A stretch of 64,000 nt of DNA from Bacteroidota bacterium (GTDB taxonomy: Bacteria > Bacteroidota > Bacteroidia > SXHM01). The position numbers and the translations under genes are program-made. Numbering within the stretch: position 1 is the first letter of the stretch; the number at the start of each line of letters is the position of its first letter. The notes below the pieces were generated by a model, which searched no databases, was not told the DNA's origin, and saw only the letters and a list, made by a program, of their open reading frames with translations. Shown piece after piece: positions 3,027-29,671 of this stretch. The stretch lies in the NCBI GenBank assembly GCA_947478465.1, contig CANJWH010000001.1, forward strand, positions 27,447 through 91,446. Reading direction: 5' to 3'.

Positions 3027-4199
3027 ATGCTCAATAATATCAACGGTTTCAGAAGTTTTTTACCCAAAGCAACAGCTTTCTCGCTCGCATTCATTTTTTC
3101 AGCTTTTTTAGCTTTTGCCCACGAAGACGAACACAAAGCCTCAGCGGAAGCTGCTCATGATACTATCGAAACTGTTCAACATGATAGTATTGCAACGGAA
3201 GCACATGCCGAAGCAGAACATCACGGAGAAGAAAAATTTGATGCCGGAAAAATGATCATGGAGCACGTTGCCGATGCACACGACTGGCACTTGTGGGGAC
3301 ACACTTCTATTCCGCTTCCTGTTATTATTTATTCAAGCGAAAAAGGCTTGACTGTTTTCTCTTCTTCAAAATTTAACCACGGTCATGATGATTACAATGG
3401 CTACCGTTTAGAGCACAACACAGTTGTTGCCGTAAATGAAGACGGAACGGTTAACGAAGAATTATCGGCTAATCTCTGGGATATTTCCATCACCAAAAAC
3501 ACTGCATCATTATTCATCAGCCTTTTAATAATGCTGTTTGTTTTTATTTCTGCAGCAAAAGCATACACCCGCAACCCGAACACAGCACCTAAAGGTTTGC
3601 AGGCTATTATTGAGCCTATCATTATTTTTGTTCGTGATGATATTGCAAAGGCAAGCATTGGTCCGAAATACAAAAAATTCATGCCTTTCCTGCTTACTGT
3701 GTTCTTCTTTATCTGGATTAATAATCTGTTGGGGCTTGTTCCTATCTTCCCGGGAGGTGCTAACCTTACAGGAAACATAGCAGTTACATTATCACTTGCT
3801 GTTTTCACATTCATTATTATCCTTATTAACTCAAACAAAAACTACTGGATACACGTTTTTGCAATGCCGGGCGTTCCGGTTTGGGTTCTGTTTCTTTTAA
3901 CACCCATTGAGATATTGGGCGTGTTCCTTCGTCCGTTTGTATTGATGGTCCGACTTTTTGCAAACATGACCGCAGGTCACATTATTGCACTTTCTTTCTT
4001 CAGCCTTATCTTCATTTTCGGTGAAATGAATGTGGTTGCCGGTTACGGAGTTTCCATTTTCTCACTTGCGTTTACATTATTTATGACCTGTCTTGAATTG
4101 CTGGTAGCATTCCTGCAGGCTTACGTTTTTACTCTTCTCTCAGCTATTTACTTCGGCTCGGCTGTAGAAGAGCATCACCATGCCGAAGAACATCACTAA
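3027..4199 (+). CDS. atpB: F0F1 ATP synthase subunit a
   Basis: 390 aa. Conserved RLFANMTAGH motif (essential Arg of subunit a), long N-terminal extension typical of Bacteroidota, multi-TM. Confidence 0.9.
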   Translation: MLNNINGFRSFLPKATAFSLAFIFSAFLAFAHEDEHKASAEAAHDTIETVQHDSIATEAHAEAEHHGEEKFDAGKMIMEHVADAHDWHLWGHTSIPLPVIIYSSEKGLTVFSSSKFNHGHDDYNGYRLEHNTVVAVNEDGTVNEELSANLWDISITKNTASLFISLLIMLFVFISAAKAYTRNPNTAPKGLQAIIEPIIIFVRDDIAKASIGPKYKKFMPFLLTVFFFIWINNLLGLVPIFPGGANLTGNIAVTLSLAVFTFIIILINSNKNYWIHVFAMPGVPVWVLFLLTPIEILGVFLRPFVLMVRLFANMTAGHIIALSFFSLIFIFGEMNVVAGYGVSIFSLAFTLFMTCLELLVAFLQAYVFTLLSAIYFGSAVEEHHHAEEHH

Positions 4200-26089: not shown

Positions 26090-27013
26090 ATGAAAAAAAT
26101 ATTTGCATTTATTGTTATTGCGGCTGCTCTGGTTAGTTGCAAAAAAGAGAAAAGCGGAAACATGAATTTTTCCATGCACTACACCACCTCGCCCGATGTG
26201 TTTAAAACTGAAGTTGTGCCCGATAGTTTATACACCGGTTTTGGTGATTACATAACCAGTGTAACTCCCTCCCATTTCTCTGGAAAATTCAGGATGCTGG
26301 GCTTTCAGGATGCTGTTAGTCCGATAGACCAAAACACGAATATGCTGCTGTTTATTGATGGCAGTATGTCGAATGATGACCCCGCACGTATTGCCGATTT
26401 TTCAAACAACGCGGTGGTTAGTTATTCACCAAATATCCAGGGCCTTCAGGATAACGATGGCCTGTTTAGGGCTGAGCAGATAAACTTTATTTATTTTTAT
26501 TTTGATGCCTATTATTTTTATCAGGAGGTTGCCTTGCCTGCGCAATATGATACTGTAACCATTGCTATGTTTAACCGCAGCTATGGCAATGGCAACTTTA
26601 ATTACCGCAGCGATTCGGTTAAGGTTAACAACATACTTAAGGTAGATTATTACCCGCTTATCAGCAATGTGTTTAATGACGAAAACTACTGGCCTCAGTC
26701 TTATGTTTTTGGTAATTGCGATTCAACTTTTCTTTTTAATACCGAGCGTAATAATGTACCCAATTCGGCTAACTGGCCCTTTGGAGGCTATACCCATGAA
26801 TCAATAATCCGCAGCAATAACTATAACATGGCAACGGTAAACACTCCTACCGAAGGCGAAACGGTTAACATGACATCAACCGTTGGTTTTGATACCCAAA
26901 ACCTGATTCAGATTTATGCCGGTGCCGATAACATCCCTTACAACAGTGATGATGTGTTTGTTTATGCGCCCAATTTTTGGGAACGGATACAGGCTAATCT
27001 GGTGGTGGAATAG
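26090..27013 (+). CDS. Hypothetical lipoprotein
   Basis: 307 aa. Lipobox …ALVSC at residues 15-18; no recognised domain. Confidence 0.55.
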   Translation: MKKIFAFIVIAAALVSCKKEKSGNMNFSMHYTTSPDVFKTEVVPDSLYTGFGDYITSVTPSHFSGKFRMLGFQDAVSPIDQNTNMLLFIDGSMSNDDPARIADFSNNAVVSYSPNIQGLQDNDGLFRAEQINFIYFYFDAYYFYQEVALPAQYDTVTIAMFNRSYGNGNFNYRSDSVKVNNILKVDYYPLISNVFNDENYWPQSYVFGNCDSTFLFNTERNNVPNSANWPFGGYTHESIIRSNNYNMATVNTPTEGETVNMTSTVGFDTQNLIQIYAGADNIPYNSDDVFVYAPNFWERIQANLVVE

Positions 27014-27025
27014 GGTTTATATTTT

Positions 27026-27042
27026 ACCACTAAGGGCACAAG
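27026..27042. repeat. Repeat family A copy
   Basis: ttaccactaagggcacaagaacac, immediately after the lipoprotein stop. Confidence 0.5.
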
Positions 27043-27126
27043 AACACTAAGGTTTTTTACCTCAAAGGCGCTAAGATTTTAAATCCTCTGTGTAACTCTT
27101 TATCTTCTCTGTGCCCTCTGTGTTAA

Positions 27127-27154
27127 AACCCTTCGACTATGCTCAGGGTGACAA
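27127..27154. repeat. Repeat family B copy (ACCCTTCGACTATGCTCAGGGTGACAAT)
   Basis: 27 of 28 identical to 4547-4575. Confidence 0.55.
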
Positions 27155-27159
27155 TCTTC

Positions 27160-27504
27160 TTACTTCCCAATCTTCTCCCAATACTTATCCCGCTCCTCTC
27201 CTACCCTTTTCAGTTCTTTTTTCAGGGCTTCAATTTCTTTAAGCAATTCTTTTTCGCGGGCGGTGGGGCGCACGTGTTCGGGTAATAATTCAAGGTAATA
27301 TTCAAACAGATTTTCGCCCAAAAAATCGCTGAGGGCAAGCAGTACTGAGGGGCGCACATCGCGGGTGCGCAGGTTGCTGTGCAAATAATTCGAACTTTTT
27401 TTCAGCTTCCGGCTTATAGCGTTAAGCGATGTGCCTTTGTATTTTGCCCAGTTGCGGGCTATTGCAGGCATATCTGGCAATTCTTTTTTGGTTTTTAGCG
27501 GCAT
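27160..27504 (-). CDS. Small HTH (XRE-like) DNA-binding protein with C-terminal coiled coil
   Basis: 114 aa. GTSLNAISRKLKKSSNYLHSNLR resembles an XRE-type helix-turn-helix. The ATG sits 11 bp from the first iteron. Confidence 0.5.
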   Translation of the reverse strand: MPLKTKKELPDMPAIARNWAKYKGTSLNAISRKLKKSSNYLHSNLRTRDVRPSVLLALSDFLGENLFEYYLELLPEHVRPTAREKELLKEIEALKKELKRVGEERDKYWEKIGK

Positions 27505-27514
27505 GATTTATAAA

Positions 27515-27672
27515 TTGTAATGAGCGGTAAAGAAATTGTAACGGGCGGTAGCATTTTTGTAACGGACGGTATAAAATTTATAACGGGTGGTATATAAACA
27601 ATAACGCAGGAACGAGAAATTGCAACATGGAGTTGAGATAGTGTAAAGCATGTTCAATCTATTGTAACATTG
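27515..27672. repeat. 21-bp phased direct-repeat (iteron/operator-like) array, consensus TTGTAACGGGCGGTA
   Basis: Good copies at 27515, 27536, 27557 and 27578 (spacing exactly 21 bp). Degenerate copies at 27599, 27620 and 27662. Confidence 0.65.
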
Positions 27673-27676
27673 CCTT

Positions 27677-27714
27677 AAAAAAGCCCTTTGCAACTATGTG
27701 CAAAGGGCTTTTTA
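27677..27714. terminator. Bidirectional intrinsic terminator (perfect 16-bp stem)
   Basis: aaaaaagccctttgca-actatg-tgcaaagggcttttt, A-run and T-run on opposite sides. Located 3' of the 311-aa gene. Confidence 0.7.
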
Positions 27715-27720
27715 GTGTGT

Positions 27721-28656
27721 TTAACCTATGGTAACTTTATAAGTGCCGGGTGTGCCGGTGGGGTTTTGCACCACCAGTTCGTTACCTGCCGGTGCCATAG
27801 CGCCAAAGGTAGTTTCCAGCGGGGTGCCGGGCATTACGTTTACCCATCCGCCTTGTATCATTCCGCTTATGGCTAAAGCAAACTGCAGTTGCGTACCCGA
27901 TACTTCAAATTTAACGGGAGTAGCTGCATTGTAGGTTATTTCGGCTACCTTTTTTTGTGCTCCGGGGTTTACACCTTCTTCATACACATCGCCTCCTCCC
28001 CCGCTTGGGTTATCGTCAATGGCGCGGGCCAGCTGATATTCTTCCCACAGCGCAACGGTGGCGGCATTGTTGCGATAGCTGTTCACATATCCGTCAAGTT
28101 TTTCAAGCAGTTTGCGGCTTTCGGCAATGCCGCGATCAACATCATTGCCGGCAACGGTTTTGGCTTCAATGGCATCTTTAACTTCGGGTATGGCGGTGAA
28201 GTAAGTAATGGTTAGTGCAGGCAGGTCGGCAATATCGCTTGCGGCAACATTATAGCCCGGCAGCGCAGCAAGCACAACGGGTGTAAGGTAGGTGTTAAGG
28301 TACTGAGCCTTTTGCTGCAATTCGGTATCCTGCATTTTTTTAAGGTCGCTTTTGGTATAATTTACCTTGTTTGCAAGTGTGTTGTTATTATTGTCTTCGG
28401 CATAAGAGTGTATACCGTTAGCTACATTATACATAACGGTTTCAAGCGCCTGACGGGTTTGCTGCTTGTCTTCGGCAACACCCGTAGTGTTTTCGGTGGC
28501 GCGGCCTGCGGCTTCAATAATAATTTGGATTTGTGCATCTAAAAGCGCTTTGGTTGGCGCAATTTGCATGTGGCTTGAGTAAGCCGCTGCATTGTCTTCA
28601 AGGTTGTCTTGCACCTTGAGCAGCATGTTTAAAAATGCTTGCTGTGTGTCATTCAT
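27721..28656 (-). CDS. Hypothetical protein (311 aa): helical N-terminal region, Gly linker, beta-rich C-terminal domain; no recognised family
   Basis: Clean ORF with its own terminator. No signal peptide or TM; SGGGGD linker near residue 225. Confidence 0.55.
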   Translation of the reverse strand: MNDTQQAFLNMLLKVQDNLEDNAAAYSSHMQIAPTKALLDAQIQIIIEAAGRATENTTGVAEDKQQTRQALETVMYNVANGIHSYAEDNNNNTLANKVNYTKSDLKKMQDTELQQKAQYLNTYLTPVVLAALPGYNVAASDIADLPALTITYFTAIPEVKDAIEAKTVAGNDVDRGIAESRKLLEKLDGYVNSYRNNAATVALWEEYQLARAIDDNPSGGGGDVYEEGVNPGAQKKVAEITYNAATPVKFEVSGTQLQFALAISGMIQGGWVNVMPGTPLETTFGAMAPAGNELVVQNPTGTPGTYKVTIG

Positions 28657-28674
28657 AAGATGAGGTTTTTGGGG

Positions 28675-29025
28675 TTAGTTTTCTGGTTTGTTTAGTTGAT
28701 TGGTATTAGAAAGTTTAATTTTAATTTCTTCAAGATCAGACAAGACTTGCTTCATAAATTGATCAGAAAAAACAATCCTGGTCTCTGCTACAACATTCAG
28801 CGGGTTTTCGGATTCAAAAACCGTTTTTTTCGAATCTGGAAAATCAATCGAAAAATCATGTCTGATGATGTTACCTATGCGTTCTATCATTTCTTCAGGC
28901 GGGTTGTGGGTTGCAAGCAGGCGGTCAAAAGTCTTTTTATCAATTTTCAACTTCTTGTAAATAAATGCCTTTGACACACCAAATTCTTCTATTCTTTCCC
29001 TGATTATTTTTCCGCGGTGTTCCAT
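28675..29025 (-). CDS. HTH XRE-like transcriptional regulator (116 aa)
   Basis: IRERIEEFGVSKAFIYKKLKIDKKTFDRLL is a helix-turn-helix signature near the N-terminus. Confidence 0.55.
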   Translation of the reverse strand: MEHRGKIIRERIEEFGVSKAFIYKKLKIDKKTFDRLLATHNPPEEMIERIGNIIRHDFSIDFPDSKKTVFESENPLNVVAETRIVFSDQFMKQVLSDLEEIKIKLSNTNQLNKPEN

Positions 29026-29086
29026 TTTCGGAACAAAAATACCGCAGCACCTTAGGCTTTATTGAACACCGGGCAGGCGAAAGTGA

Positions 29087-29131
29087 CCCATTAATGGGGA
29101 GCGTGAGAAGAAAAAATACCCCTTTATGGGG
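29087..29131. promoter_or_regulatory. Two operator-like sites CCCATTAATGGGGA / CCCCTTTATGGGGA 31 bp apart upstream of the HTH gene
   Basis: The first is a perfect 12-bp palindrome (cccattaatggg). Both sit in the 5' region of the minus-strand gene that ends at 29025. Confidence 0.35.
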
Positions 29132-29203
29132 AATTGAGAAAAAGGCCGGTGCTGTTGAGGCAATTAGCGCTACGGCAAAAAAACCGATATTTGCCCACCA
29201 ACA

Positions 29204-29238
29204 TTCGTATATTCGTAATTCATTCGTTATTCGTTGAT
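29204..29238. repeat. Half-element of repeat family C (four ATTCGT hexamers) overlapping the ybeY start
   Basis: attcgt-at-attcgt-aattc-attcgt-t-attcgt-tgat has the same architecture as the right arm of 24055-24146. Confidence 0.45.
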
Positions 29239-29671
29239 GATAAACTTCTTCACCCAAGACATAAAATTTACCCTGAAGAACAAAACAAAAGTTCGTCAGT
29301 GGCTAACCACCGTTGCCAAAAAAGAAGGCGCCCAAATAGCCGAACTCAACTACATTTTTTGCAGTGATAATTACCTGCTGGATCTGAACAAAAAACATTT
29401 GAACCATAACACACTTACCGATATAATTACGTTCGATACGGCTGTCACTTCGAGCGTAGTCGAGAAGCAAATAACCGGAGACATTTTTATAAGCATTGAA
29501 AGAATAACCGAAAACGCAGAAAAATTCAATGTTTCACGTGAGTACGAGCTGCACCGTGTAATGGTACACGGCCTGCTTCACCTCCTCGGCTACAAAGACA
29601 AAAAACCTGCAGATAAAGCCCAGATGACGGGCAAAGAAGATTTTTATTTAAAGAAAGTCCATAGTCGATAG
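29234..29671 (+). CDS. ybeY: rRNA maturation endoribonuclease YbeY
   Basis: 145 aa. HGLLHLLGYKD zinc-binding H-x-H motif. Confidence 0.85.
   Translation: MMINFFTQDIKFTLKNKTKVRQWLTTVAKKEGAQIAELNYIFCSDNYLLDLNKKHLNHNTLTDIITFDTAVTSSVVEKQITGDIFISIERITENAEKFNVSREYELHRVMVHGLLHLLGYKDKKPADKAQMTGKEDFYLKKVHSR

Follow-up and report, generated by a model that had tools for sequence, protein, structure and literature searches.

A Repeat-Bearing Three-Gene Cassette of Bacteroidota Replaced by Divergent Versions at a Fixed Chromosomal Site

Introduction

What is a 311-amino-acid (aa) protein without a named family doing between two small regulator genes in a Bacteroidota chromosome? The question is raised by a stretch of 64,000 nucleotides (GenBank assembly GCA_947478465.1, contig CANJWH010000001.1, positions 27,447 to 91,446 of the forward strand), hereafter the window, within which all coordinates of this locus are counted from the first letter. 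Here, the gene for the 311-aa protein is flanked by two genes for small helix-turn-helix (HTH)-like proteins, designated HTH-prime (upstream) and HTH-CC (downstream). A preliminary description of the locus, made from the letters alone, had regarded the protein as an orphan and as the likely effector of an HTH-flanked module.

At a single chromosomal site, near-identical genomes hold versions of the cassette formed by these three genes that are merely 23-50% identical, and the family of the 311-aa gene is specifically associated with phased arrays of 21-bp direct repeats and a neighbouring HTH gene. The array of the window had escaped the preliminary description. The reading that we tentatively prefer, without placing strong confidence in it, is that of a horizontally exchanged accessory cassette of the conflict type, which exists in many divergent versions, each with its private repeat/HTH switch. 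We place it among the small accessory cassettes under HTH control, as a new variant that belongs to no named family. Homologues were examined at 18 distinct loci (designated by L numbers), nearly all of them in Bacteroidota metagenome bins, from a family of thousands of clusters; the context is chromosomal at every locus, and all that is said below on function has been derived computationally.

Cassette Replacement within a Conserved Frame

The window and locus L008 share the gene order S46 peptidase, methyltransferase, MnmG, YbeY, cassette, lipoprotein, LepA, and aldehyde dehydrogenase. When the two are compared by blastn, ybeY is conserved up to position 29240 and the lipoprotein side from 27075, and only short, weak matches are found in between. 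At the protein level, the frame is 92.1% (S46 peptidase), 89.1% (methyltransferase), 97.9% (MnmG), 78.4% (YbeY), 91.9% (lipoprotein), 96.8% (LepA), and 97.4% (aldehyde dehydrogenase) identical; the corresponding values for the enclosed cassette are 23% for HTH-prime, 36% for the 311-aa protein, and 50% for HTH-CC. L014 shows a pattern like that of L008, and here the site has also received additional toxin-antitoxin genes. The same type of cassette also occurs in an unrelated neighbourhood, where it adjoins DNA ligase (L005, L015). Moreover, one metagenome-assembled genome, GCA_022072225.1, carries two cassettes on different contigs (L018, equal to L005, and L021), with repeat units of the CATGAAGTAA type in one and of the TCTCTACCCAACGGTCTTAAT type in the other and with HTH DNA-binding domains that are 41% identical.

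The 311-aa open reading frame (ORF) represents a genuine gene on which purifying selection acts, since all 33 close homologues have equal length and share the start methionine (MNDxQ...), and since the ratio of nonsynonymous to synonymous substitution rates (dN/dS) is ~0.16 (0.075/0.469) in comparison with an 87%-identical homologue. This bears on the possibility that we are dealing with an ordinary regulated chromosomal gene, which would encode a lineage-specific structural or stress protein behind plain operator repeats and would have diverged through weak constraint. The window locus does lie amid housekeeping genes (ybeY/mnmG, lepA) with a normal base composition, neither a mobility gene nor a tRNA is found nearby, and purifying selection on the 311-aa gene would suit this explanation too. 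However, identities of 23-50% within a frame of 78-98% cannot stem from relaxed constraint at a dN/dS of 0.16 and thus point to the replacement of one version by another, divergent one; unrelated neighbourhoods house the same cassette (for instance on the DNA ligase side in L005 and L015), and the cassettes are mosaic (see below). An ordinary gene therefore appears unlikely, and if it were one, the locus would still represent a sharp allelic replacement amid otherwise near-identical genomes.

The lipoprotein gene and the cassette are separated by an inverted repeat similar to repetitive extragenic palindromic (REP) elements (27022-27128; TTTTACCACTAAGGGCACA and TGTGCCCTCTGTGTTAAAA, at a distance of 69 nt), which contains short direct repeats and may be a boundary mark of the cassette or a recombination site; L008 has a 55-bp piece of this element on either side of the lipoprotein gene. 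The adjoining gene itself (26090-27013, plus strand) encodes a predicted lipoprotein of 307 aa with a lipobox-like N-terminus and no Pfam family. This uncharacterised protein is 92% identical in L008 and hence belongs to the conserved frame. Scanning the region for Rfam families and tRNAs brought up nothing relevant.

The Array of 21-bp Repeats

The array of the window (Table 1) extends from the terminator side to 10 nt before the ATG of HTH-CC, and a possible fifth, degenerate repeat would carry it to ~27613. It is the sole period-21 array of the window, and its core motif TACCGNCCGTTACAA is found nowhere else in these 64 kb. Of the 18 homologous loci, 15 have a period-21 array that Tandem Repeats Finder detected at most a few hundred bases from the family gene, with copy numbers of 2.6-10.9 and a consensus that differs at every locus; the background, ~181 kb taken from these loci and from the remainder of the window, contained no array with a period of 20-22. 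In most of the loci, 4-11 direct repeats accompany the gene. A period of 21 bp corresponds to two helical turns of DNA.

An array is always followed directly by a small HTH gene, and this holds for both gene orders encountered, namely HTH-prime, 311, terminator, array, HTH-CC in the clade of the window and array, HTH, 311, terminator in L011, L012, L022, L025, and L033. Most of the arrays show degeneracy, the core being conserved and the spacer variable. In L012, about seven degenerate units could be made out by eye, L022 has a 31-bp array together with a ~21-bp one, and neither L023 nor an additional distant locus, L034, has any. No variation of the copy number has been found in the population, as L001-L004 match the window exactly in this region. 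The longest and cleanest arrays are those of L025 (2543-2770), where ~11 copies with two alternating spacer variants give a 42-bp higher-order unit, and of L011 (5211-5425), with ~10 nearly perfect copies of GTTTGGGTTAACCGAGTTAAC; a 42-bp super-period is present at several further loci. Downstream of the L025 array, a good Bacteroidota -7 box (TAACTTTG) can be read from the sequence.

Direct repeats next to a terminator recall the type III toxin-antitoxin systems (ToxIN-like), in which near-perfect repeats of ~34-45 nt are transcribed as the antitoxin RNA and are followed by a terminator and the toxin gene. The cassette differs in its period of 21 nt, in the degeneracy of its repeats, and in the position of the array, after the terminator and before an HTH gene; these three differences set it apart from the type III systems.

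Table 1. Features of the cassette in the window.
Feature	Position	Strand	Description
Whole variable cassette	27076..29239	-	~2.2 kb; bounds set by the loss of DNA similarity to L008
HTH-CC gene	27160..27504	-	114 aa, isoelectric point (pI) 9.7; predicted XRE/Cro-like HTH at residues ~12-73, long C-terminal helix at 80-113
Direct-repeat array	27515..27592	-	Four copies, start-to-start distance exactly 21 bp; gene-strand core TACCGNCCGTTACAA
Intrinsic terminator of the 311-aa gene	27678..27713	-	Bidirectional hairpin; perfect 15-bp stem, 6-nt loop, then U-run
311-aa protein gene	27721..28656	-	ATG start; 33.4 kDa, pI 4.6, no Cys
C-terminal jelly-roll/beta-sandwich, residues 223-311	27724..27990	-	Exchangeable among family members
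Gly-rich linker, residues 213-222 (..DDNPSGGGGD..)	27991..28020	-	Also a recombination breakpoint
N-terminal all-helical domain, residues 1-212	28021..28656	-	Portion conserved family-wide
HTH-prime gene	28675..29025	-	116 aa; ORF 18 nt upstream of the 311-aa gene; seven homologues aligned
Near-identical palindromes ACCCATTAATGGGGA and ACCCCTTTATGGGGA, 32 bp apart	29086-29100, 29118-29132		Upstream of HTH-prime

The 311-aa Protein and Its Family

The structure of the protein was modelled with AlphaFold2 from an alignment of 23 sequences (mean predicted local distance difference test, pLDDT, 85). In the model, helices extend over residues 3-212 and an eight-strand beta domain over 223-311, and residues 215-221 of the linker between them fall below a pLDDT of 50. 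No transmembrane segment or signal peptide is present (maximal Kyte-Doolittle 19-residue mean 1.2), and neither a Walker A nor any other simple catalytic motif was found in the protein. The hairpin that closes the gene has a folding free energy of -23.1 kcal/mol (z -4.9). Thus, what the preliminary description had read from the letters (a helical N-terminus, a glycine linker, and a beta-rich C-terminal domain, the lack of export, membrane, nucleotide-binding, and catalytic signatures, and a perfect terminator of its own) is borne out. Its idea of an effector found no support, given the lack of an enzymatic signature, the binding or scaffold appearance of the protein, and the lack of a match to any known defence-system model. 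The protein is soluble and acidic, with the layout of a scaffold plus a binding head and with nothing enzyme-like, and the jelly-roll of PirA and of Cry-toxin domain III can be named among the closest known systems.

The leader preceding the start codon (28657-28674; ..AAAACC.CAAAAACC.CTCATCTT ATG) is short and near-identical in the window, L008, L014, and L021, although the proteins of these cassettes share just 35-65% identity. Its preservation suggests a conserved translation or regulatory signal.

The protein proved to be anything but an orphan, although no curated family matches it. A profile built from its close homologues, run against 1.84 billion cluster representatives, matched 5,676 of them at E<=1e-3, 3,703 at E<=1e-10, and 263 at E<=1e-30. 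Among the 150 matches listed, nearly all start aligning within the first 11 profile positions, and many cover positions 1 to ~215 only, beyond which such members bear another beta domain (CarboxypepD_reg, PEGA, PLipase_C_C, PKD/LRR) or none. Because so many matches stop at ~215 and continue with a differing domain, the family is seen, from its sequences, to be a very large unnamed one that is defined by the helical N-domain and carries a swappable C-terminal head. Just four residues, G59, K64, D110, and I213, are near-invariant in the broad family. The names retrievable for cluster members read 'hypothetical protein' in all cases, or there is no name.

Homology to a characterised housekeeping family was looked for, and none was found. 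Pfam-A gave no significant match for the 311-aa protein (the top one, DUF1993, had an E of 0.14 and 12.6 bits against a cut-off of 23.4 bits), NCBIfam gave no match at all, PHROGs nothing better than E 0.023, and sequence and profile searches of the PDB (profiles A1, A2, A3, and A4) nothing significant. PADLOC (PADLOC-DB v2) found no relevant defence-system match for the three window proteins and four other family members. When the three window proteins and 45 + 7 relatives were scanned with Pfam, NCBIfam, PHROGs, and PADLOC, their conserved parts remained unmatched, and the matches of the 45 diverse members were confined to C-terminal add-on domains. tblastn with three family members (P0001, P0150, and P0116) against 72,556 plasmids (PLSDB) revealed no family match, the sole plasmid match being a TonB-receptor CarboxypepD_reg domain, and with two of them (P0001 and P0150) none in 50,697 phage genomes either. 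IMG/VR scans for two subfamilies returned no relatives, scans of genomes and metagenomes returned close relatives only (5 and 8 loci), and a search of the literature on such repeat/HTH modules in Bacteroidota yielded nothing relevant.

These searches bear directly on the possibility of a decayed prophage or satellite immunity region, in which a repressor with multiple operators would have been left together with a structural or decoration protein. The XRE/Cro-like regulators would fit such an origin, as would repressor/operator specificities that diversify in the manner generally known from heteroimmune phages, and in BFVD the small beta domain weakly resembles small uncharacterised phage proteins (E>=6e-5, query-normalised TM-score ~0.2). 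However, neither PHROGs, nor the phage genomes, nor IMG/VR contain a relative within the scope just given, and an integrase or any other phage gene is present in none of the loci, so that a prophage remnant is highly improbable.

The Two Regulators

HTH-CC, for which 17 close relatives were found, is predicted by AlphaFold2 (pLDDT 74) to consist of helices 12-17, 27-34, 38-46, 52-62, and 67-73 and a tail helix 80-113, the latter being a probable dimerising coiled coil. Its top PDB neighbours according to Foldseek are SinR, lambda cI, DdrO, GraA/HigA, and Aca1, all with weak scores (E ~1); the XRE-type antitoxin HipB is also among the top structural neighbours, and the structure of plasmid R388 ArdK in complex with its direct-repeat element (PDB 7bca) appears weakly in the same list. 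In a profile search of the PDB, SinR was reached with an E of 0.5, and coiled-coil proteins were matched by the tail. No Pfam HTH model matched HTH-CC of the window at threshold; its counterparts in L008 and L012 have a weak precomputed HTH_3 match. Thus, HTH-CC models as a five-helix HTH of the kind seen in the XRE/Cro-cI regulators (HigA/GraA, SinR, Aca1, ArdK), with weak scores, and differs from these in its C-terminal coiled coil and in its presumed target, a long phased array instead of one or two palindromes.

In the alignment of the HTH-CC family, the DNA-binding domain is near invariant except for the presumed recognition helix (residues 37-48), whose variability fits repeat sequences that differ among loci. 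The HTH proteins of L011, L012, and L033, where the gene order is different, resemble HTH-CC and have in common the motif ..LS.A.GFN.LD.Y...PE...RERD.Y, and the HTH gene beside the array in L022 and L025 encodes a Cro/C1 protein of the HTH_26 type.

In HTH-prime, a probable HTH precedes a short helix at the C-terminus, and its gene probably shares a transcript with the 311-aa gene. The HTH of HTH-prime was matched below threshold only, by DBP48 (E 0.014) and RacA (0.17) in the PDB, and HTH_3, HTH_17, and HTH_26 appear, again sub-threshold, in single members. A comparison of HTH-prime with HTH-CC for paralogy gave an hhalign probability of just 6.8%. The palindrome pair upstream of HTH-prime (ACCCATTAATGGGGA/ACCCCTTTATGGGGA) is kept in L021, which has the same HTH-prime type, and in L008 and L014, whose HTH-prime is of another type, its place is taken by another palindrome, GGCAAAAATAATTTTGCC. 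From these sequences, the palindromes are likely to be candidate operators of the HTH-prime/311 operon that change with the type of the upstream regulator.

The view of the 311-aa gene as flanked by two small HTH genes thus holds in so far as there are same-strand genes on both sides and the downstream product models as XRE/Cro-like, and it is weaker on the upstream side, where the evidence is sub-threshold. As like partners, the two did not stand up: HTH-prime is replaced by unrelated small HTH genes in L005 and L015 and is absent from distant loci; the constant companion of the family is the array-preceded HTH gene. The module as such is real and conserved, with one small HTH-like gene, a ~311-aa gene with its terminator, and another HTH gene recurring in differing neighbourhoods and with the 311-aa family protein as its constant large component. 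The suggested check of homologue contexts turned up the array-preceded HTH gene alongside; with regard to defence, the toxin-antitoxin or restriction setting of the homologues is suggestive only.

Mosaic Structure of the Cassettes

Eleven loci of the window clade were compared pairwise for mosaicism. The identity of the C-terminal heads tracks that of the HTH-CC DNA-binding domains (Mantel r 0.91, p 1e-4), whereas the identity of the N-domains does not (r 0.19). The window and L021 are 79% identical in the N-domain, 35% in the head, and 31% in the DNA-binding domain of HTH-CC; for the window and L014, the values are 37%, 65%, and 79%, respectively. The DNA similarity between the window and L021 ends at 27987, that is, at the end of the Gly linker. 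Taken together, the co-variation and the linker breakpoint mean that the head, the terminator, the repeats, and the recognition domain are inherited as one block.

Judged from the sequences, such co-variation could arise because the head reads the HTH-repeat complex, and it could equally reflect adjacency, with recombination being restricted to conserved flanking sequences. In L011 and L033, which have the other gene order, the 311 proteins are 84% identical, the DNA-binding domains 42%, and the repeats differ, a contrast that favours the simpler explanation by linkage. Functional coupling of head and HTH was therefore not retained: the co-variation within the window clade is strong but confounded by adjacency, and it is contradicted by the L011-L033 pair.

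A further reading is that of a novel chromosomal nucleoprotein system without a nucleoside triphosphatase (NTPase), in which a polymer of the HTH/coiled-coil protein on a private array would be read by the jelly-roll head. Head, repeats, and recognition helix would then form one inherited specificity block, and the system, addressed in this way, would tether or sense DNA in the service of defence, exclusion, or element inheritance. We consider this improbable.

In its anatomy, the cassette is closest to the tubC-tubR-tubZ and parC-parM-parR loci (parC-parMR) and to iteron replicons, which raises the question of a partition-like or replicon-derived module, with the array as a centromere or a set of iterons, the HTH protein as the centromere binder, and the 311-aa protein as an adaptor or filament protein. 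With the partition loci, the cassette shares tandem repeats, the gene of a small, presumably DNA-binding protein, and a ~300-aa partner gene; the order of repeats, small HTH gene, and larger gene in L011, L012, L022, L025, and L033 corresponds to that of tubC-tubR-tubZ, as do the sizes to those of parC/ParM/ParR. The repeat sequence and the presumed binding protein diversify jointly, as is generally known of partition loci, in a manner like that of incompatibility groups, with two addresses in one genome, and the co-variation of the head, but not of the N-domain, with the DNA-binding domain of HTH-CC could be viewed in the same light. Iteron replicons (Rep_3-type plasmids, P1, F, R6K) likewise have direct repeats about two helical turns apart, which the 21-bp phasing resembles, directly upstream of the gene of the presumed binder, and related iteron systems differ in specificity.

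Nevertheless, the tests that define these systems fail. The 311-aa protein does not belong to the actin-, tubulin-, or Walker-type NTPases, the repeat period of the partition loci is 11-12 bp compared with 21 bp here, and the cassette has neither a Rep initiator nor a winged-helix pair, the adjacent binder being only ~115 aa long. No match to the DnaA box TTATCCACA with <=1 mismatch was found in 27076-29239, and no AT-rich unwinding element, the GC content of the cassette being 0.42-0.44, no lower than that of the surroundings. All loci are chromosomal and neither the plasmids (three queries) nor the phages (two queries) gave a family match, and the co-variation is explicable by adjacency, as L011 and L033 illustrate. 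A partition or replicon origin is thus quite unlikely.

Genomic Company and Likely Role

In most related contexts, the cassettes adjoin type II toxin or restriction genes, and the role implied thereby is suggestive only. On the basis of this genomic company and of the hypervariability, genetic conflict, be it addiction or defence against phages or mobile elements, is judged the likeliest role. Should the cassette act in this way, HTH-CC would dimerise through its C-terminal helix and bind the repeats cooperatively along one face of the DNA, and since the array of the window abuts the start codon of HTH-CC, the protein would repress its own promoter, giving a tight, switch-like autoregulation. 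The differing pairs of repeats and recognition helices would serve as private (orthogonal) addresses without cross-talk between cassettes, HTH-prime would control the HTH-prime/311 operon via its own palindromes, and the 311-aa protein would act by binding through its variable head, not by catalysis.

Several observations weigh against an exchanged conflict cassette with a private switch. No toxin-antitoxin or restriction neighbour is present at the window's own site, where the cassette stands alone, no conflict genes are seen nearby in L012, L022, and L025, and no PADLOC model matches. Two family members, L023 and L034, are without any array. The HTH call for HTH-CC is a weak one, based on a Foldseek E of ~1, a hidden Markov model E of ~0.5, and a pLDDT of 74. 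The HTHs of the window and L028 are ~80% identical in the DNA-binding domain and their repeats are quite different, so that specificity must rest on few residues of the recognition helix. Finally, the sample of inspected loci is small for a family of this size and comes almost entirely from one phylum.

The company of the cassette also calls for comparison with the type II toxin-antitoxin systems of Bacteroidota hot spots (HigBA, ParDE, VapBC), with which it shares a small size, an HTH-type regulator, integration in hot spots, and patchiness, some genomes having the module and others not at the same site. The 311-aa protein might accordingly be the toxin of a classical type II toxin-antitoxin or abortive-infection pair, with HTH-prime or HTH-CC as the DNA-binding antitoxin. 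The 18-nt spacing of HTH-prime and the 311-aa gene on one strand, the XRE-type antitoxins HigA, GraA, and HipB among the structural neighbours of HTH-CC (with weak scores), the location of the cassette among bona fide toxin-antitoxin modules at at least eight related loci, and an apparently tight, cooperative regulation, such as a harmful product would need, all speak for a pair of this kind. It is doubtful nonetheless, as the cassette consists of three genes plus an array, with no recognisable toxin fold, domain, or catalytic motif; the broad family is near-invariant at its four residues only, the large protein is acidic and appears to combine a scaffold with a binding domain, and HTH-prime is not kept across the family. 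To our knowledge, long direct-repeat arrays are not the usual operator of toxin-antitoxin systems.

If the exchanged conflict cassette with its private switch is the correct reading, an unnamed family of thousands of clusters gains a searchable and testable signature (array, matching HTH, swappable head), and the Bacteroidota hot spots for toxin-antitoxin and defence genes acquire a new kind of cassette. The orthogonal repeat/HTH pairs would also be ready repressor-operator parts for Bacteroidota genetics, without cross-reaction.

Beside the cassette, ParE is found in L015, L021, and L027 and, together with HigBA, in L014; HigBA is accompanied by a PIN-domain gene in L017. PIN and PDDEXK_3 genes are neighbours in L008, a MmeI-like methyltransferase and PIN in L011, a nucleotidyltransferase/HEPN pair in L005, and DUF4258 in L019. 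Type I restriction-modification genes adjoin the family gene in L023, and methyltransferase, HATPase, HNH, and Vsr genes in L034. In relatives, the ybeY-lepA interval and the site on the DNA ligase side are hot spots in which HigBA, ParE/ParD-like, and PIN pairs gather. Toxin-antitoxin genes lie beside the cassettes at 3279-4973 in L014, at 3281-3891 and 6674-7042 in L017, at 11182-11765 in L008, at 3598-3909 in L021, at 3795-4103 in L027, and at 3964-4516 in L015.

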